A stretch of DNA of 64,000 nucleotides. Source: Octopus vulgaris. Lineage: Eukaryota. The stretch spans positions 89,156,001 to 89,220,000 of the forward strand of contig OX597817.1 of assembly GCA_951406725.2 (NCBI GenBank), in the 5' to 3' direction. The notes under the pieces were generated by a model. That model was not told where the DNA came from. It saw only the letters and a list, made by a program, of their open reading frames with translations, and did not search any database. Made by a program: the position numbers and the translations under genes. Of this stretch, positions 2,028-63,156 are shown in pieces (position 1 is the first letter of the stretch; each line of letters begins with the position of its first letter).

Positions 2028-3741
2028 GCAATGGGTTCTATGGATTCGGTAAGTTAAAGTTGTTGATTTGGGGAACAAACCATATATTTTTCTCTACAAT
2101 AGAGAAATTCGAAATAGTATATGTTTATATAGAAGGATGATGCACTTTTTACAATTGTAAACACATCTAGTAAAATGTTGGAAAAATACAGAATGGAATT
2201 GTTTAGGTTCTTTAAAAAGGTAGGCCTATCTATAACGGTAGATGTTGAACATGATTTTGTTAACTTCTTAAATGTTACGTTGGAGATTAAACATGGAATT
2301 TACAAACACTTTCATAAACCCAATGAAAACATAAAATATATAAATATTGGAAGTAATCATCTAAATCAGTAACAAACTCACTTATAAAGACCATTTCGTC
2401 TAGAATAACAAATTGTTGATAACCGGGTTAAAATTTCTCGTAGTGCTAATGGAAATGAGGATGTAGTATTTTCTAATAAAATCTCAAATTCTTTCAATAT
2501 AAAATCTGTTAAAATATTCAAAGATAAAAATAAAAGTAAAATAAACGCTAAAAAAAGAATGGATTGAAATCAGAGAATACTTACTCTTTCGAAAAACGGG
2601 TATAAACATCAAAATTATGATCTTAACTCGAAGAATACTTTATGGTCAATCGTTCCAGTTGGTAAACAGATCAATTACAATTTTTCCAAATTGTTTAAAA
2701 TAGCAATCCAAAAGTATTTTCCAAGAAACCACAGATGTTAGAAAATTTTTAGTGGGCATAAGGTTAGATTGGGTTGTCTTAGTCGTAATATTGCGCAAAT
2801 TATAGTAACACCCAATAGTAAAATAATATCGAAATTTCAAAAAAAGCAATTACAATCAGAATAGTGTAATAAATTCGAAACATAATAACTGATTTTTTAG
2901 ATTTACTATAAAGGTAATGACAAAGACAGGACATTCAAAGGTGTCGGGGGAACGAATGAGATGACAAGATTAAACATTTATGATGATATATAAAATTGAA
3001 TGATGATGATGATGATGAAGTGAGGGACGGGCACGACCCCACCAACCACGTTCCTCCACTGATCCCTTTAAGAGAATTTTGTTCTCCCTTAAGCAGGTAC
3101 ATCCACTCTCAACATGCTAGCCGCTTTCTTCCATCATTTCTTATAAGTACTAAGTGGCAAGCGTCTCCTCTCCAGCATTATTTTCCTTTTAAGATGGAAA
3201 ATAAAAAATTTCGTAGCATAATAACATCAAACGGAATAAAGAAACTCAAAAAGAAGAGAATGTGGAAAGGGAAAGAACCTAATTTAACATAGATAATGAC
3301 GTCAATTCGAATAAAAGTTTAGCTAGAATAGAACAAAGATAACGTTATCTAAAGGAGTAAATAGTAATACCGAACTTGGTGAAAATGAATTTAATTCTGC
3401 AATCAATGATCAAATTGAAAGCAAATCTGACGGAAATATAAAATGATATCTTTGCAATTGTTCTAAACGTGAAAAATAAGTGTAAAACTAAAAATGTAAT
3501 ATATAGATGTATAGTTACATCTGAAGGTAGGGAATTCCTTTACATCGGTGGGGCATCATTAATTTTCAAGAGGAGACCGGCAAATCATTTGAGTTCATTT
3601 AGAGACAAAAATAAAAGGTTCCTAACCAGTCTTAGTAAATTAATCTGGTCTTTCAAGGACAGTAACAAGGACTATACGATTAAATGGGAGTTAATTTGTA
3701 CTACAAAACCATACAGATCTGGAACCAATAGATGTGACCTA
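2028..3741 (+). pseudogene. Penelope-like retroelement (YRDD, Naiad-like) RT C-terminus plus GIY-YIG endonuclease, disrupted
   Basis: AMGS..DS..VVDLG; frameshifted YR/DD at ~2127-2142; VNFLNVTL..YKHFHKPN..YINIGSNH; KYFPRNH; CNC..C..KNVIYRC..LYIG..FKRR..NH..IKW..CDL. Many stops and frameshifts. Confidence 0.85.
2890..3216 (-). mobile_element. 5'-truncated Tx1/L1-clade LINE 3' end inserted in the Penelope
   Basis: The minus strand reads FHLKRKIMLERRRLPLSTYKK*WKKAASMLRVD, similar to the ORF2 end at 62760-62860. It is flanked by the direct repeat cataataac (2881-2889 and 3217-3225) and is absent from the paralogous segment at ~4710-4720. Confidence 0.65.
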
Positions 3742-4122
3742 TACTCTTTATTCTTTTACTTCTTTCAGTCATTTGACTGCGGCCATGCTGGAGTACCGCC
3801 TTTAATCGAGCAATTCGACCCCGGGACTTATTCTTTTGTAAGCCCAGTACTTATTCTATCGGTCTCTTTTGCCGAACCGCTAAGTAACGGGGACATAAAC
3901 ACACCAGCGTCGGTTGTCAAGCAATGCTAGAGGGACAAACGCAGACACACAAACACACACACGCATATATATATATATATACGACGGGTTTCTTTCAGTT
4001 TCCGTCTACCAAATCCACTCACAAGGCTTTGGTCGGCCCAAGGCTATAGTAGAAGACACTTGCCCATGGTGCCACGCAGTGGAACTGAACTCGGAACCAT
4101 GTGGTTGGTAAACAAGCTACTT
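3742..4122 (-). mobile_element. tRNA-derived SINE (duplicated copy, lacks the extreme 5' head)
   Basis: Reverse complement of the 19725-20122 family; interrupts the Penelope endonuclease at CDL. Confidence 0.9.
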
Positions 4123-4391
4123 TATTTCATTAAATTTGCCACTAGGGCAGTACACAGATGAGTAGCTGCGGGCTGGACAAAAAACACATTAATGCGGTGA
4201 GGATGATAATGATGAACGAAAATGGGAGGGGCACTGGCGCCCGCCGACCAATAACCCCTCGAATACAAAGTTTCTTTATACTAAAAATTCTTTACAAAAA
4301 ATTTCACAACAAAAATTCCTACAGCAAAAAATTTTCTTATAATTCTCTTTGTCAGGTCCCCAAAATTAATTGACCTGCCGCCTGCAGACAA
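4123..4391 (-). mobile_element. Duplicated 3' end of the ORF1-only Tx1-like element
   Basis: Near-identical to 5740-6011. Confidence 0.85.
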
Positions 4392-5341
4392 TCAGAGAAT
4401 ACTTACTCCTTTGAAAAACAAAACAGGTATAAACATCAAAATTATGATCTTAACTTGAAAGAATACTTTATGGTTAATTGTTCCATTTGGTAAACAGGTC
4501 AATTACAATTTTTCCAAATTGTTTAATATAGCAATTCAAAGATATTTTCCAAGAAACCACAAATATTACAAAATTTTTAATCGACATAAGATTAGATTGG
4601 GTTATTGCCTTAGCTGTAATATTGCACAAATTATAGCAGCACATAATGTTAAAATAATATCGAAATTTCAAAAAAGCGATTGCAATCAGAATTGTGTAAT
4701 AAATTCAAAGCATAATAACATTAAATGGAATCAAGAAACTCAAATAGTAGGGAATGCTAAGAATGTAAATGTCGTGGAAAAGGAAGCAATGCAATTTAGC
4801 ATAAATAATGTCAAATCAAATAAAAATTCAGCTAGGTTAACCTAGGGTGAGAGTGCAGATACTTGCCCAAGGTGCAACAAAGTGCAACTGAAACTGAAAC
4901 CATGTCGTTGGAAAGTAAACTTCTTTAGATAACAAAGATAACGTTATCTAAAGGAGTAAATAGTAATACCGAACTTGGTGAAAATGAATTTAATTCTGCA
5001 ATCAATGATCAAATTGAAAGCAAATCTGACGGAAATATAAAATGATATCTTTGCAATTGTTCTAAACGTGAAAAATAAGTGTAAAACTAAAAATGTAATA
5101 TATAGATGTATAGTTACATCTGAAGGTAGGGAATTCCTTTACATCGGTGGGGCATCATTAATTTTCAAGAGGAGACCGGCAAATCATTTGAGTTCATTTA
5201 GAGACAAAAATAAAAGGTTCCTAACCAGTCTTAGTAAATTAATCTGGTCTTTCAAGGACAGTAACAAGGACTATACGATTAAATGGGAGTTAATTTGTAC
5301 TACAAAACCATACAGATCTGGAACCAATAGATGTGACCTAT
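4390..5341 (+). pseudogene. Second Penelope-like fragment (linker plus GIY-YIG)
   Basis: ORF 4519-4845 (RYFPRNHKYYKIFNRHKIRLGYCLSCNIAQII) and ORF from 5068 (NVIYRC..LYIG..RCDL). Short SINE-head remnant at ~4845-4925. Confidence 0.85.
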
Positions 5342-5560
5342 ACTCTTTACTCTTTTACTTCTTTCAGTCATATGACTGCGGCCATGCTGGAGTACCGCCT
5401 TTAATCGAGCAATTCGACCCCGGGACTTATTCTTTTGTAAGCCCAGTACTTATTCTATCGGTCTCTTTTGCCGAACCGCTAAGTAACGGGGACATAAACA
5501 CACCAGCATCGGTTGTCAAGCAATGCTAGAGGGACAGACGCAGACACACAAACACACACA

Positions 5561-5599
<39 letters not shown>

Positions 5600-5739
5600 G
5601 ACGGGTTTCTTTCAGTTTCCGTCTACCAAATCCACTCACAAGGCTTTGGTCGGCCCAAGGCTATAGTAGAAGACACTTGCCCAAGGTGCCACGCAGTGGG
5701 ACTGAACCCGGAACCATGTGGTTGGTAGACAAGCTACTT
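5342..5739 (-). mobile_element. tRNA-derived SINE body, split from its head (7927-7967) by the Tx1-like insertion
   Basis: Joining 5342-5739 to 7943-7967 restores the full SINE seen at 19725-20122 and 35253-35671. Confidence 0.9.
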
Positions 5740-7926
5740 TATTTCATTAAATTTGCCACTAGGGCAGTACACAGATGAGTAGCTGCGGGCTGGACAAAAA
5801 ACACATTAATGCGGTGAGGATGATAATGATGAACAAAAAATGGGAGGGGCACTGGCACCCGCCGACCAATAGCCCCTCAAATACAAAGTTTCTTTATACT
5901 AAAAATTCTTTACAAAAATTTTCAACAACAAAAATTCCTACAGCAAAAAATTTTCTTATAATTCTCTTTGTCAGGTCCCCAGAATTAATTGACCTGCCGC
6001 CTGCAGACAACTCCGCAATGACAGGTCAGGACCTGAAAACAGAAAAGCGAATTCTTTCTTGTCAAAGGTCAATGCGACCTTTGACAAAGTTTTTTCCGTA
6101 ACCGCCTCCGCAGCCACCTGCGGAGGCCAATTCGGACAGCTTGAGCAGAACGAGTACATTCGTCCTAGTTCGCCCAAGCTGTCCAGAAATTTATTAACCT
6201 TCCCTCCCTCGCGATAAAGGAGGACAACCGTCTCCTCTTTACGGGAAGGTACTTCATGCTGCTCCGTCAGTGGCACACTTCCCACTGACGGAGCCCTCTC
6301 CGCAGGTGGCACACATCCCACCTGCGACTCCGTCTGCGACCCATGAACATCAGCCGCCCGACCTCTATTTCTCTTTCTCCTCCTTTTTTGGGGGGAGACT
6401 GCTGGCTCAGGGGGCTCCGTCAGCAGACATGGGGGGTCGCTATCCCCCTCCGCCACCGGAGCATTCTTTGCTCACCTGTCTTTTTCTTTTCGTGGGGGCA
6501 ACTTCCTCCACGACTTCCACCGTCTCCCCCTCCAATGAGGGGGTGGCGGGCACCTTTTCCCTTTCATGCTCCGGGTCACCACCACGGCCCCCGGGACAGT
6601 TCCTCTTGATATGTCCAGGCTCCAGGTACAGGTGACACTTGGGGGGTGGGGCGTCCCTCGAGTATCACCGGGTACCTGTGCCCGGCCATTCTCAGGAAGT
6701 CTGGGAATATCATCTCTCCCACGGCCACCGGGGTCCACAGGGTCAAAGTTGCTTTTGACCCCTCCCAGGCGACCGCGGGAGTCATTTTTACACTCAGTAG
6801 CCTGGGCCCGCTATCCCCCAGGCCTCGCCGGATGGTCTCCTCGATCCATCCCGCTTCCGTGCCCGGGGGCAGCCCGCAAACCCAGGCTCTTTTTATTTTC
6901 CTGCCACAATACGAGGGGAGGAACAAAATCTCCTCTCCCTCAAGGGGCTCGCTAGCAAATCTGCTAGCTTCCTCGGGGGTACCAAACAGCAACCACACCG
7001 TTGCAAATTTAGTCCCCCGAGAAATAAACTTTATAGTTGGCAGGTGGTCTGCCAACTCTTTTTCTATTGTGCTCTTGTCGAATAGGTTCGTATTACCACC
7101 GTCCTCTTCTCAAGATCTTTAATCCACTGCTTGGGTGGGACAACCTCCCACTCCAAAGCAGTGGCTTCATTTTTCTTTGCCATGTAACAGAAAGTTCAAA
7201 GTTCAAATAAAGTTCGATAGATTTTTGAAAAAATAAGGAAGATACAAAAAGGAGAAGCACAACAGAAGGGAAGAAATGAACAGAAAATCACAATAAACAA
7301 AAAAACAAACAAAAAGAGAAGTTAAATAAAGTTCAAAATAAAGTCAATAACACAGCAAAAAACACAGCAAAAATCTTCTGGCCATCCGGTACTCCCGGCC
7401 TAAGTTGAACCCAGGAACACCGCGACTGGAACAGCTTTCACCAAATTGTTATAAAATTGGTATAAAATACAATTCTCACAATACAATTCTCACAACTAGG
7501 TGAGAAAAACATTCACTCAAAAACGCAGGCGAATACGCCCCTCAAAAATTCTCACTCCTGGCCGTCCAATGGTAAAATAAATCTTATCGCAGCACAATTA
7601 GTCCCTTCTACCTTGGTACTCCGTGGTAAATCCAGTGGGAAAACACAAAGACAATTCATTTTTGCGGAGGGACTACGCCTCTTCAAAAACACAATTCTCA
7701 CTACAAAGTGAGTCTTTACGCTCGACCACAGGCAGGAAAATGTCTGGAGCAGAGTGGAGTCTATTACTCACCAAAAAATATTAAATACAGGGCAACAAAC
7801 TCCACTAAGCCCTCAAAAAAATACAACAAACGCCTACCTGTAGTCGTGCTTCCAAAATGTTCAATTTTCACGTCGCAAGGCGTGACTTTCAAGCTGCATG
7901 AAAAATGCAAACTCTTCTGTCAGTGA
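5740..7926 (-). mobile_element. Full-length ORF1-only (HAL1-like) Tx1/L1-clade non-LTR element
   Basis: 16-bp TSD ggta(g/a)acaagctactt at 5724-5739 and 7927-7942; minus-strand 3' end terminates in AATAAA; ~740-nt 5' UTR; gag-like ORF1; no RT or endonuclease. Confidence 0.75.
5971..7183 (-). pseudogene. Gag-like ORF1 (RRM-like region plus CCHC knuckle), frameshifted
   Basis: ATG at 7183 (MAKKNEATALEWEV..); ORF 6576-7055 (..WVCGLPPG..YPVILEGRP); knuckle KCHLYLEPGHIKRNCP at ~6593-6640 with the second C changed to Y; basic, low-complexity C-terminus in ORF 5971-6456. Confidence 0.7.
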
Positions 7927-7965
7927 GGTAAACAAGCTACTTACCACACAGCCACTCCTGCGCCT

Positions 7966-8075
7966 ATGTTTAGAAGAATTTTACAGGATTTTCACATCCA
8001 AGGGTAATGTAATAAATTCTAGACAAGAGTAAGCATTGAGATGCTTGCACATGAGGAGAGAATGTCCCGTTTTAT
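7966..8075 (+). pseudogene. C-terminus of the Penelope GIY-YIG domain
   Basis: Resumes as CLEEFYRIFTSKGNVINSRQE*..RCLH, completing CDL|CLEE across the nested insertion. Confidence 0.75.
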
Positions 8076-8864
8076 AATAGGGTTGCAATTGCTACGATGG
8101 CTAATCAGTGCAATGGAAACATCTGTTGGTCTTAAAAGGCAGTATATAATTATAGAATTAAAGATAATGCTATTGCTGCTTCGGAGTAATGCCCCTTTTA
8201 TTATTGTCAATATATGTTTGTGTGTGTGTTTTTGTGTGTATACACACACACACACGCGCGCGCGCGCGCATATATGCTTATACATACTTGCACAGGCACA
8301 CATCCATACCCATCCATTTACACTTCCTTCAGACTGCCTCTCAGACACCCTTCAAACTTCCTCGACTTACTACTGACCGTCTCATCTACGCGAAAGTGCA
8401 AACACGCACACACACACAGACACACACACACACACAGACACATCATCCCTACACACATTTGTAACTATAGCTGCTGGTATCTCACTACGGCATTAACGCA
8501 CACATACACAGACTACTTACAGAACACAAACACATGCACGCAGTTAATGCCACACACACACACACACTTATGTCACGCATACACACAGCTACCACCACAC
8601 GCACACACGCTACCACGTACACATACAGTTACTGTTACACACACTCACGATATTATACGCAAACACGCTATCGCACACACACACACACGCTCACCATACA
8701 CACACTTGTACACAGATACCAACAATTCCTCACATTCTCTTATCTCAGAAAGCACTTTCTCTTTGTCCATCTACTTCCGGTCAATTCAAAAATGTAACTA
8801 CACGTGGACTGTTGGCGATTTTCCCCCTCTTCTACCTTTTCCTTTGGACTTTCCTATGTTTCCT

Positions 8865-16341: not shown

Positions 16342-17579
16342 TTGGGTTGGCAACTAAATTCTCGCGTTTTTTTTTTAATTTTGGAATTTATTGCGTATTC
16401 AAATTTTGGAATCTATTTTTTTCGAGAATTCTATTTTTGAATCATTTTGGAATCTATTTTGTTTTTTGTTTTTTTCTAGTTGATTTTAGTTAATTTTTGT
16501 TTATTTTCAGATCATTAAAATGGAATGTCAAGTTAAGAAAAACGAGCATTTTCGACACCTCCTTCTTTTTTGCTTTTAATCAAGGTTCTAAGGCCGTAAA
16601 AGCTGCTCGTGACAATTGTGCTGTGTATGGAGAAGGTGCCATAGCTGAAAGAACCGGTCGTGATTGGTATGCCAAGTTCAAAAATAGAAATTTTAACCTC
16701 AAAGACGCACGTAGTTCTGGCCGTCCAGCTGAGTTCGATGAACAGCGATTAAACCAACTTTTGCACGAAAATTCTCGTCAAACGACACGGGAACTGGCAG
16801 AGAAAATGGAATGCTTCCACACTGCTATAGAGAATCATCTTTATTCAAAGGGAAAGGTTCAGAAGTATGGAGCATGGCTTCCGCATGCTTTAAGTGACAA
16901 AACAAAAATAAATGAGCCACAATCTCCGCTAGTTTGCTTGCTCGTCACCGCTCAACTCATGGACACAAACAACGATTTCTTTACCGAATCGTTACTGGTG
17001 ACGAAAAATGGTGCCTGTACATCAATATGAAGCGGCGTAAGGAATGGCTTAGCCCCGGTAAACAAGCGACACGATGTTGTGCGTATGGAGGGACTGGGAA
17101 GGGATTATCCATTACGAATTGCTTGAACGGAACCAAACGGTCAATGCGGAACGACTCAACACAGCTATTCAAGAGAAAAGACCTAATCTCCGCTGGTTTG
17201 CTTGCTCGTCACCGCCATCCCTCAATATGACCAATATGACCAAGGAAGCCATTCAAACGCATGGCTGGGAAGTTCTGCCACACCCGCCGTACTCTCCTGA
17301 TTTGGAATCAAACAGATTTCCACCTCTTTCGATCTCTTTCAAATGCTATGCGCGGAGCTTCGTTCAATACTGATGCAGAATTGAAAGCTTGGTTGGATCA
17401 ATTTTCCGAGTCGAAATCGGGTGATTTTTACCAACGAGGTATTGAAAATCCTGTTGAACGTTGGGAGGATACATTATTGGGTGAATACATTATTGATTAA
17501 TTAGTTGTTATTCTTTTTATTAAACCTTAAAAAAAATTTAAATTAAAAAAGAACGGCGGGAACTTAGTTGCCAACGTAA
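16342..17579 (+). mobile_element. Mariner transposon, full length, frameshifted transposase
   Basis: TIRs ttgggttggcaactaa.. / ..ttagttgccaacgtaa; HTH (R.W..KFK..LKD..RSGRP), GAWLPH, IVTGDEKW, HPPYSPDL, DFHLFRSL, YQRGI..RWE. Confidence 0.95.
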
Positions 17580-21222: not shown

Positions 21223-21366
21223 CAGGTCACTGCCTGGAATCGAACTCGAAATATTGGGGTTAGTTGCCTGCGCTCTTAACCACTACGCCACGGGCATTTG
21301 GCGTAGTGGTTAAGAGCACGGGTCACTAACCCCAAGATTCCGATTTCAATTTCAGGCATTGACCTG
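21223..21366. repeat. Back-to-back inverted pair of tRNA-like heads
   Basis: 68-bp arms (21223-21290 and 21299-21366) with an 8-nt spacer; each has A box TGGCGTAGTGG and a B-box-like GTTCGATTCC or TTTCAATTTC. Confidence 0.8.
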
Positions 21367-57714: not shown

Positions 57715-59034
57715 GTGCCTGTGTGTATGTGTGTGTCTGTGTGTGTGTGTGCGTGTGGGTGTGTGTGTGTGTGTGCCTGTGTGTATGTGTGCGTATGTAT
57801 GTGCACTCATGAATATATGCGTGCGTGTGTGCGGATATGTATGTATATGTGGATGTGTGTGTATATGACTGCTTCTAAGGAATTTCGGCGTCTTGTGTTC
57901 GTGTGTTCAAAGATGTTCGATATCTCGTGCGTGAGTGCATGTGTACATGTGCACGTGTAACTGTCTCCCTCTCTCTCTCTGTATGAGTATGTGGTTCTAT
58001 GAACGCGTGTGCGTACATGTATCTGTTAATGTGTATGTGTGCGTGCGAGCGCAGCTAGTACTGTGACATTCTGTTTCCTGCTACGTCCGTTACATAATGC
58101 ATGTAGCTATGACATGGATATTGCGTGTACGAATGTGTGTCTATGTGTGTGAGTGTATGTGTCTATGCGGTGTGTGTGCGTGTGTTTGCGTTTGTGTGTA
58201 TGTGTGTGTGCCTATGGATGTTCAATATCTTGTACGTAAGCGTGAGCATAACGATGTGTATGTGTGTGTGTTTATGCATATGTGCGTATGTGTTTATGTA
58301 TGTGTGTGTGCATGTGTGTGTATGTGTGTGTGTGTGTTTGTATGCGTAGTGGCAGTGTATATTTGTGTGTGTAATTGTGATATCGGTATGATGTGTGTAG
58401 GTGACAGTTGTAGGATGTGCATGTATATGTATTGTGCTTAGTATATGTGTGCGCTTACGACACTATGAGTATGTGCGCGCGTATATCTGTGTGTACGTAG
58501 CTGTGACAGTGATAATGCGTGTATGTGGGATTAAGGATGTGTATGTGAGTATAGATACTACTGGCAATGTGTTTATTTGTGTACGTGCCTCTGTGCGTGT
58601 GTGCATGTCTGTGTGTGTGTGCGTGCGTGTATCTATCAATGTTGCAGTGTATATGTGCATGTTGTGTATGTGCCTCTGTGTTTGTGTGAGTGTGTGTGTG
58701 TGTGTGCCTTTGTGTATGTGTGTGTGTCTGTGTGTGCCTGCGTTTATATGCGTGTGTGCGAGTGTGTACAGCTATCGATGTTGCAGCGTGTGTGCGTGTG
58801 TGTGTGTGTGTGTGTGTATACAGTTAAGCGTTGATATTTCTGTAAACCTGTCGATTTTTGTATTGCACGTTTTATGAAGACTATGATGTAATACTGTATG
58901 TGCAACAAGGAATATTGAATTCAGTGTGCAGCGAAGAATTTTATTGTATTGAAATATAAGAATGTTTTTTTAAAACAATTTTATGAGTTGAAAACACGAC
59001 TGTGATCTAGTGTAATGATTTTTTATCACGAATG

Positions 59035-59420
59035 TGACGAGCTGGAAGAATCGTTAACACACCGGGCGAAATGCTAGGTTCTGAGTTCAAATTCCACCGT
59101 GGTCGACTTTGCTTTTCATGTTTTCGGGGTCGATAAAATAAGTACCAGTTGAGTACTGGGATCGATGTAATCGATTATCCCTTTCAACAAAAATTTTAGC
59201 CCTTGTGCCTATAGCAGAAAGGATTATTATTATTGGCGAGCTGGCAGAATTGTATGCATGTCGGACGAAATGCTTAGCGGTATTTTGTTTGCCCTTACGT
59301 TCTGAGTTCAAATTCCGCCGAGGTCGACTTTGACTTTCATCCTTTCAGGGTCGATTAAATAAGTACCAGTTACTCTCTGGGTTCGATAAATAAATAAATT
59401 ATTATTATTATTATTATTTA

Positions 59421-59473
<53 letters not shown>

Positions 59474-59709
59474 AGGTTTGAAGGTGAGGAGCTAGCAGAA
59501 GTGTTAGTACGCCGGGCGAGGTGCTTAGCGATATTCCGTCTGTCTCTACATTCTGAGTTCAAATTCCACCGAGGTCGACTTTGCCTTTCATCCTTTCGGG
59601 GTCGATAAATTAAGCACCAGTGAAACACTGGGGTCGATGTCATCGACTCATCCACTCCCCGAAAATGGCTGCCTCTGTGGTAAAATTTGAAACCATTATT
59701 GTTATTATT

Positions 59710-59764
<55 letters not shown>

Positions 59765-59799
59765 CCACCACCACCACCACCACCACCGCCACCACCACC

Positions 59800-59848
<49 letters not shown>

Positions 59849-60292
59849 CTATCTCCACCACCACCAATATATATCTATATGTATGTGTGTGTGTATATGT
59901 TTGTGCTTCTGTGTTTACGGTTGTTGCTGGTGTGTTTACGTCCCCGTAACTTAGCGGTTCGGCAAAAGAAACCGATAGAATAAGTCCTGGGGTCGATTTG
60001 CTCGACTAAAGGCGGTGCTCCAGCATGGCCACAGTCAAATGACTGAAATAAGTAAAAGAGAGTAAAAGAGAGTAAAAGTGAGCGGTGAGCTGGCAGAAAC
60101 GCTTTCGCGCCGGGCTACATGTTTCGCGGTATTTTTTCCGTCTTTATGCTCTGAGTTCAAAACCTGCTGAGGTCTACTTTGCCTTTCATCCTCTCGGGTC
60201 GATAAAATAAATACCAGTTGAACACTAGGGCCTATATAATCGACTTAACCACTCCTTCAAAATTGCAGGGTTTGTGCCAAAATTTGAAATCC
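59035..60292 (+). mobile_element. Head-to-tail SINE cluster with (ATT)n and (ATC)n tails
   Basis: Four gagctggcagaa..gagttcaaattcc..gtcgactttgcc units plus a 19725-family 3' half. Confidence 0.8.
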
Positions 60293-60340
<48 letters not shown>

Positions 60341-60402: not shown

Positions 60403-63156
60403 AGAGTGAACTAGTTAAGAGGGCGATGTCAGAGGCAATAATCAACAAGAAATGGTGGATCGCCCTGAAAAGGGCTTTCAAAATAGAATCGATTAAGGTT
60501 AGCAAAGGTCTAGCAGTAGAAAGAAACAGTAGAGGCAGGGCTTGTCAAAAAGTTAGACGAGGATTTTAGAAAAGGCATCGTGACTGACTTGCTCGCAGCG
60601 AGATTAGTAATCGACCAATTCTTAAACGCGAAACAAAAAGGTTGCGTTGTCAGACCTAACGCACGAGCACTTATATATACGAAGTGACGAAAGCCGTTCA
60701 ATGGGCCCGATTGGTAGAGACACGACCTGGCAATAAATCCACGATCCGACATTTACCGGACCACGACGGGCAAATGATAACTGATCGAAGACAAAATGTG
60801 TTCAGCCATTCAGCGACGCTTCGCGCAACTGTTCGGGAGCAGCGGTGAGCCGAGTCGCAGGATGAATTTCAGTCCTACCTAGAAGGACTGCAGCGGCTTT
60901 CGGCGACGGAGGCGGGGCGCTGCGAAAAGCTGATAACAGCCTTAGAAATAGAGGCAATGACTAGCTGCACAAAGATAAATAGCGTGGTTTAGATGGTCTC
61001 CCCTACGGGCTTTACGCTTACATGTCGGACTTGTTCGTTGACTTCTTAGGAAACGTTTACAGCAACTGGTAACAGAATGGGAGAATTTTCAGCTTTGTCA
61101 GCCGAGGAGCGGTGGGTTTGCTGAGAAAAGACCCAAACAAGGAGGAATGTATTGACAACTTTAGGACCATAGCACTGCTGAATACAGAGTTCAAACTTTT
61201 GGTCAAGGTGTTAGCTGGGGCTTGACGTCGGGGATCTGGTAGGGGAGGCACAGACATGTGTCATCCCGAAAAGATCCATCCACGACAACCCTCACCTCCT
61301 GCGATACATCACTGAGGGGCTGGATTGCTGCAATGCACAGCGACATCTGTTCAGTGGTCAGAGTGAGCGGTCACCTCTCAGAGCCGTTCAATATCGTGCG
61401 CTCAGTCCGGCAAGGTTGCCCTCCTCTCGTCTCTCTTGTATGTACTGAATTTCGAGCCACTACTACACAAACTGGTGGCGTTGAGAGGTATCTGTGTGAC
61501 CAAGGATGTGGGAGATGTATGTCGGCATATGCCGACGAATATGCCGACGACGTCACCATTATGGTGTCGGATCACAAACACATAGACATAATCGTCACCG
61601 CTCTCAAGGACTACGAGGCGTTTTCAGGAGCGACGATTAAACAGGAAAAATCAGTGGGCTTGCGGCTCGGCACCTGCAGAAGCAAGTCCATGCTGTTCAA
61701 CTGCGTCGTTGGAAGCTGGACGGACGGACCGGTTAAATTGCTCGGAGTCTGGCTCGGTTCGGACTTCCAGATGGATAAAAACTGGGACGAGGTAACGAGC
61801 AAGGTGACTACTCTCGCTCAGAAACGAACCGAGGGAAAGCTATCCCTGAAAGGTTGGGCAGAGGTGGCTGATGCGTATATCGCGTCCGTCATCTACTATC
61901 GCTTGACGGTTGTGTCTTGTTCTGGCCACCGTCTGATTACTTCGGAGCGTATACTCTTCCGCTTCTTGTGGAAGGGACGCGTCCCAATGGTCAGGTGGTT
62001 TTCTTTTGTCAACACCCACTGAGTGATGACCTGGGCATGCCGTGGTTGATGATGCGCAGATATGCGCTGAGGCCACGACACCTCCAGTGCTTTATTGACA
62101 GTGGTCGTCGTTCGCCAAACGTATTTCCGCAGCTAGTTTCTTTAACGGAGCTGCAGTCTTAGGTAAAACAAAGATCGGGTGGGGAGCATTGGGAAAGTGG
62201 AATGTCTTCAAGCGCTCACAGCCCTCAGCCAATCAGACACTGCGATAGGTGGGACTTCCACTCTAGCTTTTTATAGAGGATTAGTAGACGAAAAATGCAA
62301 CGATGTTCTTATGGCGTCGAAGAAGATCAAACTGGCTGCTCTTTTCCGGAGAACTTTCGGCTCGGGAAAATTTCCAAAAATCTCTGGCCTGGCAATGTTA
62401 CCGGGGAGCTTTGCCTGTTTGAGATAAACTTTACAGGCACAGAAGTACCTTTACAGGCACAGAAGTACCTTTACAGGCACAGAAGCGAGCATGTCCTAGA
62501 TGCGTGCAGGAGACGGTCCTGTGTGCACTCGTCCAGTAGCCGAGCATTGCTGACCTATGAGTTTATGTCGAACAACTGCTGTCGCATGTGGAACGGATCC
62601 GACTGTCAACTGACTCCATTGTGAAGATCACCCCGCTGCCTTCCTTTAAGCGGGAAGGAAAGGCTGTGTTTATATACCTGGTGGCTCTGGCAAAAGAGAT
62701 TGCATGCTGGACGAGATTGAGGGGCTGAAGACAAACACTTTTCACTTCGGCTAATTCATGATCAACTTGAATAAGAAAATAAGAGCAAAGAGAGAAGTGT
62801 TGTCTTCTGGCCAGTTTGCTGAAAGGTAGTTGAAAGTGGCGAGAATGGTGCGAGTGAACGGCCCTGCCCTGAGCATGCCTATAGTTGGAAAAAGGAGGAA
62901 AGAAAAAAAGGCACCTGCCCCAAAGGTCAGGGTACCCATGATTTTTTTATGTGTTTTTTCCATGAGCAGCCCTTGAACTTCTCCCTATCCAAGGCTATAT
63001 ATTGTTGATTTCTTTTTTAAAAAATAATTTTGTTTAGTCACGTTTACACGCAAAACTCACAACACCCACTCACACACATACACATACATCTTTGTGTTGT
63101 CCTGTAGTGTCTATAATGGTTTTCTTAATGTGAACACATGTAATTAATAAAGAAAT
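60403..63156 (+). pseudogene. Tx1/L1-clade LINE ORF2 (reverse transcriptase), 5'-truncated and disrupted
   Basis: GLDGLPY, DNFRTIALLNTEFKLLVKVLA, RSVRQGCP, AYADDVT, VKLLGVW, LSLKG, LFRFLWKG, LGMP; AATAAA at ~63146; part of the RT is deleted near 61310. Confidence 0.9.

Follow-up and report, generated by a model that had tools for sequence, protein, structure and literature searches.

A dead ORF1-only non-LTR retroelement between the promoter boxes of a SINE in Octopus vulgaris and its putative SINE-targeting family

Non-autonomous long interspersed nuclear elements (LINEs) that still possess the first open reading frame (ORF1) are known from the Jockey, L1 and CR1 clades (PMC5786205, PMC5753468, PMC5537684). 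HAL1, HeT-A and Ag-Sponge, which belong to L1, Jockey and CR1, respectively, keep a 5′ untranslated region (UTR), ORF1 and a 3′ end, lack ORF2 and are mobilised in trans (PMC5753468, PMC5786205); the list of such elements in PMC5786205 has none from the Tx1 clade. Tx1 is also the source of target-specific LINEs, such as Tx1L in Tx1D, Tx1-Mar (together with SINEU) in Mariner-N4_AMi, Keno in U2, and Kibi and Koshi in microsatellites, where a family counts as target-specific if >20% of its flanks are of one repeat type (PMC4494074). The targets named in the cited sections of that study are DNA transposons, long terminal repeat (LTR) elements, satellites, microsatellites, U2, U5 and 5S, and no promoter of a short interspersed nuclear element (SINE) is among them; tRNA-gene targets are known in other non-LTR clades (PMC4640811). 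Here, we describe an ORF1-only element inserted between the promoter boxes of a SINE in a 64,000-nt stretch of Octopus vulgaris DNA (contig OX597817.1, positions 89,156,001 to 89,220,000; hereafter the window, whose own coordinates are used throughout). With modest confidence, we read it as a dead full-length copy of an ORF1-only family encoding two RNA recognition motifs (RRMs) and a zinc knuckle, likely copied by a probably Tx1-type partner whose endonuclease likely prefers this SINE site.

Like HAL1, HeT-A and Ag-Sponge, the element has a 5′ UTR, ORF1 and a 3′ end without ORF2, and it differs from them, as far as the cited descriptions go, in being molluscan, in having no poly(A) and probably in having a fixed target. 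Mammalian HAL1 carries a Transposase_22-type ORF1 derived from L1, whereas ORF1 here combines two predicted RRMs with a knuckle, has octopus homologues and gave no Transposase_22 match in Pfam; the element was therefore rejected as a HAL1 proper. HeT-A of Drosophila is likewise ORF1/gag-only, non-autonomous and confined to one type of site, but it attaches to chromosome ends, to which Gag targets it, whereas an internal site with a target-site duplication (TSD) implies a partner endonuclease here (PMC5537684). With target-specific Tx1 LINEs the element shares its position inside another multicopy element and a Tx1-consistent ORF1, and a 16-bp TSD is also described for SINEU-3; in the same account those LINEs are autonomous and SINEU is non-coding, whereas our element is ORF1-coding and non-autonomous (PMC4494074). 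A literature search, with Repbase and Dfam outside its scope, found no report of this family or of an ORF1-only LINE targeting SINE heads. ORF1-only LINEs and transposon-targeting Tx1 elements are each known, and their combination in a SINE promoter looks new.

Read along the minus strand, the sequence passes from the SINE head (7965-7927) into a 2187-bp insert (7926-5740); behind the insert the final 16 nt of the head recur, and the SINE then resumes. The initial annotation had described a 2187-bp element with TCACTG as its minus-strand start, a long 5′ UTR, a 16-bp TSD, an ORF1 stop at 5971 with about 230 nt of 3′ UTR behind it, and neither reverse transcriptase (RT) nor endonuclease. All of this was borne out: the element spans 5740-7926, its 5′ and 3′ UTRs measure 743 and 231 nt, its stop codon lies at 5971-5973, and the element contains no RT or endonuclease ORF. 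The two TSD 16-mers agree at 15/16 positions, and the comparison with the local duplicate (4107-4122) gave 16/16. The ORF1 region is GC-rich, the predicted folding of the 3′ UTR is modest (z -2.1), and the TCACTG start is presumably initiator (Inr)-like. The presence of both ends and a TSD at this locus points to retrotransposition as a unit, as does the unbroken site in 7 of 8 other SINE pieces aligned in the window (the head is absent from the eighth). The AATAAA reported earlier at the 3′ end is present, but only its first 4 nt belong to the element, the other 2 being the start of the TSD, and the junction carries no poly(A) tail. Nor could the element be called complete, as had been proposed, given three frameshifts in ORF1, a Cys-to-Tyr change in the knuckle and the missing poly(A): this copy retains the full structure but is dead, and no host function is evident for it. 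Within the 5′ UTR, short repeats (7464-7504 and 7686-7712) are spaced 208 nt apart, and a segment at about 7443-7667 has low depth in the sequencing runs described below, with joints that skip 132 nt; it may represent 5′ UTR subfamilies or a monomer-like duplication.

ORF1 can be read only as four segments across three frames, with frameshifts near 7080, 6645 and 6470. Its closest relative, an uncharacterized Octopus sinensis protein (P0001; 69% identical over 145 aa, E 1e-61), aligns in order to the first three segments, at 71%, 69% and 55% identity, and thereby locates the breaks near 7080 and 6645; the third is inferred from the frames and from contig alignments that end at 6466-6470. About eight P0001 codons are absent at the first break, where loose contig ends at 7080 and 7086 (two runs) hold extra sequence. 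The layout comprises two RRM-like domains, one CCHC-type knuckle (about 6594-6638), a Pro/Glu/Lys-rich linker and a C-terminal 89 aa to which no domain could be assigned (model pLDDT 46, uninformative). The gag-like ORF1 with a CCHC knuckle of the initial annotation is thus right for the family but not for this copy, in which the second Cys position is Tyr, while the Cys-coding base at 6627 makes up 92-97% of the depth in four runs.

A phmmer search with ORF1 returned 18 proteins at E ≤ 0.001, 17 of which were aligned; the remaining one, P0002, was dropped as a repetitive Ig-like protein. Names were retrieved for 10 of the matches, and 7 of these are given as O. sinensis, O. vulgaris or O. bimaculoides proteins. 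Two alpha/beta domains are seen in the AlphaFold model of P0001, which has a mean pLDDT of 76, rising to about 90 across residues 1-180. Foldseek matched it to tandem-RRM proteins (best E 7e-6), each half aligned to RRMs in VIA-align with Z 7-8 and rmsd of 2-3 Å over 70-80 residues, at middling scores, and its ESM Atlas neighbours are CCHC and ZCCHC3-RBD clusters (0.90-0.92). Tx1 ORF1 has been linked to ZCCHC3, a link that our search did not confirm. The ORF1 family is accordingly predicted to fold as two RRMs plus a CCHC knuckle, that is, as a type I ORF1. Other searches added little: a word-index protein search gave 0 matches for a 177-aa fragment among longer proteins and only P0001 itself for P0001, its version with alignment gave 2 matches, both already known, a PDB profile search with ORF1 matched knuckles only, and searches of metagenome and viral contigs yielded no related locus. 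A likeness between the C-termini of ORF1 and P0013 was not significant (E 0.32), and six metagenome matches to a 20-nt 3′-end pattern were discarded as chance, since the alignments extended over only 21-24 nt.

Part of the element was present in 20 of the 24 public sequencing runs listed. Four of these 24, labelled as four organisms and the only ones tried (4/4), were compared by their contigs over 5718-7948; what follows draws on 40 of 639 differences, 15 of 43 joints, 24 of 1121 loose ends and 32 of 5622 pieces. Depth is expressed in units of single-locus depth, a rough measure taken as the median depth of long pieces, for which 2 of 8 rows of run X8 (255 and 193) were dropped as multi-copy. 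Between 961 and 1848 contigs aligned per run (1848, 1670, 1077 and 961), most of them less than 95% alike, and 30/30 bins were covered. Depth reached 310-960 at 7703, 225-560 at 6627 and 80-110 at 6014, and in the 3′ UTR 27-62 at 5872 and 305-435 at 5774. The element belongs to a multi-copy family. The 26 differences in ORF1 among those considered (9 synonymous, 17 non-synonymous) mostly reflect the decay of this copy. The bin 5718-5792 stands out with 665-1355 times single-locus depth, in excess of the rest of the 3′ UTR; this may stem from many very short 3′ copies, from related families with the same terminus or from inflation by SINE words. A loose end at 6468 in run X1 has a by-eye translation resembling the P0001 region behind the knuckle, and points to a second subfamily with a different ORF1 C-terminus.

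At the ORF1 stop, two of the 15 joints considered connect the stop codon with a 3′ UTR whose T-rich part is shortened. Joint 5894-5960 occurs in three runs (X1, X7, X8), where it has about 6-8 times single-locus depth, and joint 5754-5960 in two (X1, X7), with about 2-3 times. The stop is also spanned by one X7 contig (record 17; 88 and 61 letters). Colinearity of diverged pieces, taken from different runs, extends from 7350 to 5946 and so beyond the stop, at which none of the 24 loose ends considered lies. The ORF1-to-3′UTR junction is therefore common to several distinct copies, and the amplification of an ORF1-only form is supported; the sharing of this junction, put forward in the initial annotation as a check, holds for a subfamily (2 joints in 2-3 runs and one contig). 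The same evidence bears against an unlikely alternative, in which the large family is an ordinary autonomous LINE with ORF1 and ORF2, possibly SINE-targeting, and our element an internally deleted copy or small offshoot of it. That alternative would suit the ORF1-core depth, several times that at the ORF1 end and in the 3′ UTR, the break in alignments at 6466-6470, where the P0001-like subfamily diverges, and the average length of about 5.4 kb of recently active L1-Tx1 insertions in O. vulgaris (2,288,644 bp over 421 insertions; PMC13282606). It sits poorly with the depth of the 5′ UTR, which equals that of the 3′ terminus: similar depth of 5′ UTR, ORF1 core and 3′ terminus would fit short, mostly full-length copies better than 5′-truncated 6-kb LINEs.

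With regard to the target, depth at 7933, within the SINE head, was 40-150 times single-locus depth in all four runs, and 52-96 contigs per run reached past the stretch ends, which extend 22 nt into the SINE on each side. This overhang was assumed to be too short to recruit SINE-only contigs; the count is far below what SINE abundance would yield and far above the three junctions of this locus. Further, a joint 6289-7928 at single-locus depth in X1 and X8 places a 5′-truncated copy against the same SINE site, and the chance that a random breakpoint lands within 2 nt of that site is about 0.2%; a joint 7852-7924 (X1) could reflect either truncation or a small deletion. In none of the four runs was a pile-up of contig ends reported at the 5740 or 7926 boundary. 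The preference for the SINE site is in our judgement probably real, so that the earlier suggestion of SINE targeting gains support, albeit indirect, from head depth, end-crossing contigs and the truncated copy. That an ORF1-only family without target preference hit a SINE by chance, with the junction depth produced by a few old DNA-duplicated insertions, is decidedly unlikely; SINEs make up 11.6% of the O. vulgaris genome (PMC13282606), a DNA-level duplicate of the 3′ junction exists in this window and only 2 of the 15 joints considered (43 in total) lead to the SINE head, yet chance accounts badly for the head depth, for a truncated copy that meets the site within 1 nt and for the lack of reported end pile-ups. 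We consider it very unlikely that shared junctions reflect descent from a founder composite (SINE head, element, SINE body and tail) spread by the partner LINE of the SINE. The intact SINE tail downstream, the element's lack of its own poly(A) and a junction variant (an extra A at 7933) found in all four runs at several times single-locus depth would agree with such a founder. Joint 6289-7928, in contrast, is more easily explained as an independent 5′-truncated insertion, and a recent composite would show less diversity than the element family does, because the 5′ part of the host SINE matches other young copies at 96-98% identity, whereas most contigs of the family are less than 95% alike. 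In run X2, one contig leads from SINE-head-side sequence (7948) through 36 other letters into the 3′ UTR (5916), hinting at tandem or nested copies.

Several observations weigh against the ORF1-only, SINE-targeting family that we favour. The joints between stop and 3′ UTR amount to only about a tenth of the depth at 6014, which itself is well under that of the ORF1 core, and most of the core depth belongs to subfamilies that diverge after about 6468, with ORF2 possible downstream. The X7 contig that bridges the stop runs on into about 250 unlike letters, and no SINE-head joint for it is among the 15 of 43. Joint 6289-7928 is one probably orthologous locus with a side of 21 letters, and its intervening letters are not known; contigs counted past the ends may include ones clipped near the end. 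The support consists of contig depth and joints, which do not show outer flanks, and summed contig depth is not copy number and is taken here only as many versus one. The frameshift at 6644-6647 appears as a gap in only about 11% of X1 depth, so that its status as specific to this copy rests mainly on the protein homologues. Finally, no partner sharing the 3′ end was found, and the sole RT element seen in the window lacks that end.

If this family was mobilised as we propose, RNA polymerase (Pol) II would transcribe it from an internal promoter in the 5′ UTR, and the ORF1 protein, given its predicted fold, would coat the RNA. The ORF2 protein (ORF2p) of a partner would then recognise the roughly 40-nt 3′ end common to the subfamilies. 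As judged from depth and loose ends, the last ~37 nt of the element are far more widely shared than the other 3′ UTR, and loose ends at 5776 resemble diverged UTR relatives by eye, both of which would suit a recognition signal. To match the junction, the bottom strand would be nicked 1 nt past the A box, freeing two target T residues to pair with the A tail of the RNA. Such pairing would account both for the completion of AATAAA by the TSD and for the missing poly(A). In its sequence context, the nick is similar to the TT/A rule that L1-type endonucleases follow. The TSD observed would result from a second cut, made 16 nt downstream, and the A and B boxes would be left 2.2 kb apart, as they are seen today. 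The copy would subsequently have decayed, and its 3′ 270 nt would have been copied locally along with flank, both of which are visible in the window.

In target-primed reverse transcription the endonuclease mainly sets the target (PMC4494074), so that the cut must have come from the ORF2p of the partner. A type I ORF1 is consistent with Tx1 in non-mammalian animals and is also found in other clades (PMC5203782). Membership of the element in Tx1 is therefore plausible and at the same time unproven, the clade being defined by an RT that is absent here. Candidate partners exist, since 13 recently active L1-Tx1 families are described for O. vulgaris (PMC13282606). In the window, a decayed, 5′-truncated LINE ORF2 lies at 60405-63151 on the plus strand (RVT_1, E 6e-5), between ATC and ATT repeats, with a 3′ UTR that ends in AATAAA and no PDB sequence match. 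It has motifs that we take to be Tx1-like and may belong to a microsatellite-targeting family. As the partner it was rejected, because the similarity between the 3′ UTRs was not significant (206/2000 and 861/1000 shuffles were as good). Adjoining this RT element, at 59030-60300, a second family of SINE-like repeats, tailed by ATT/ATC, is clustered in four or five copies.

As had been noted, SINE and element share their orientation (both on the minus strand), and the insertion falls between A- and B-box-like motifs, which flank the element. The A-box-like motif of the SINE has 1 mismatch to the A-box consensus, the B-box-like motif would lie 32 nt away in the uninterrupted SINE, and the TSD begins 1 nt past the former. 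By tRNA numbering, the TSD would reach from the D arm (3′ side) into the anticodon arm (5′ half); the earlier placement in the anticodon-arm region captured the second of these and omitted the first. ARAGORN found 0 tRNA genes in its search, and no Rfam tRNA match for the SINE was seen in the top 150 of 287 window rows or in any of the 4/4 rows of a second search; Rfam matches in the window were set aside as microsatellite artefacts. The tRNA origin of the SINE is putative, resting on its A- and B-box-like motifs. Two other copies share 98% and 96% identity with the 5′ 162 nt of the host SINE; for its 3′ part the values are 94% and 86%. Judged by these identities, the insertion of the element is younger than a fairly young SINE copy.

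The initial annotation had further claimed that the insertion disables the Pol III promoter of the SINE. The boxes are indeed 2.2 kb apart, but loss of downstream SINE transcription is not certain, because the 3′ end of the element brings an A-box-like 11-mer to within 47 nt of the B box (the native spacing being 32). This 11-mer (5756-5766) has one mismatch to the A-box consensus, the same as the motif of the SINE itself. A match of this kind in the last 45 nt is expected at about 1% by shuffling and was noticed post hoc, and A-box-like motifs were not enriched across the window (47 found, 53 expected). We regard it as very unlikely that the element is a promoter-repairing SINE parasite, whose own A-box-like motif, within its most widely shared 3′ 40 nt, would keep the downstream SINE under Pol III, so that chimeric SINEs with the 3′ end of the LINE at their head may arise; such a reading would also account for the excess depth over 5718-5792.

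The positions of all features are given in Table 1. The sequence around the SINE is a Penelope-like element with a GIY-YIG frame, matched to PF01541 at E 0.0063, below the curated cut-off, and on reading the sequence it resumes at about 7966-8100. The order of nesting, as read from these interruptions, is the Penelope-like element, the SINE inside it and the ORF1-only element inside the SINE. The initial annotation had overlooked both the Penelope-like host and the local duplicate described next. The segment 3331-4391 is 97% identical, with gaps, to 4930-6010. A second independent insertion at 4122-4391 was rejected, as SINE and 415 nt of identical Penelope flank are held in common, and by this alignment the segment is a DNA-level copy. 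All 14 of its substitutions fall in the SINE and element part and 0 in about 415 nt of Penelope flank (Fisher p 0.0014), which suggests gene conversion, CpG decay or a polishing effect. The duplicate itself sits within an older Penelope-like tandem with 86% identity (2578-2890 vs. 4400-4720).

Table 1. Coordinates of the ORF1-only element, its host SINE and the adjoining features in the window
Feature	Position	Strand	Basis
ORF1-only non-LTR retroelement, decayed full-length copy, 2187 bp	5740..7926	-	sequence and family contigs
5′ TSD, 16 bp, SINE head directly after the A-box-like motif	7927..7942	-	
3′ TSD, 15/16 identical to the 5′ copy	5724..5739	-	
5′ UTR, 743 nt, first bases TCACTG, short repeats 208 nt apart	7184..7926	-	
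ORF1, 1213 nt, four frame segments, breaks near 7080, 6645 and 6470	5971..7183	-	
3′ UTR, 231 nt, T-rich first part varying in length between copies, terminal AATA	5740..5970	-	
A-box-like 11-mer within the last 27 nt of the element, 47 nt upstream of the SINE B box	5756..5766	-	
Host SINE head left upstream, A-box-like motif at 7944-7954	7927..7965	-	
Host SINE remainder: B-box-like motif (about 5698-5708), body, microsatellite, GAGTAAAA-type tail	5346..5739	-	
Penelope-like element, GIY-YIG frame, interrupted by the SINE with short duplication ATAGG	4392..5345	+	PF01541
Local duplicate of 4930-6010: Penelope piece, SINE remainder, last 270 nt of the element	3331..4391	+	

Elsewhere in the window, a fragment of a Mariner-type transposase was found at 16494-17027 on the plus strand (HTH_48, E 6e-11), and at 21280-21309 two perfect matches to the A-box consensus stand back to back on opposite strands, possibly two heads of another SINE family arranged head-to-head.

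If the favoured reading is true, the family would be a probable Tx1-type addition to the short list of protein-coding non-autonomous LINEs, and the known targets of LINEs would come to include the Pol III promoter of a SINE. An endonuclease that is sequence-specific and has about 10^5 targets in each genome would then offer a useful comparison for insertion tools of the R2 and Tx1 type. The arrangement would form a parasite system of three levels, raising the questions of whether an abundant SINE serves as a safe harbour for targeting, whether SINEs are suppressed by it and why ORF1 outlives ORF2.

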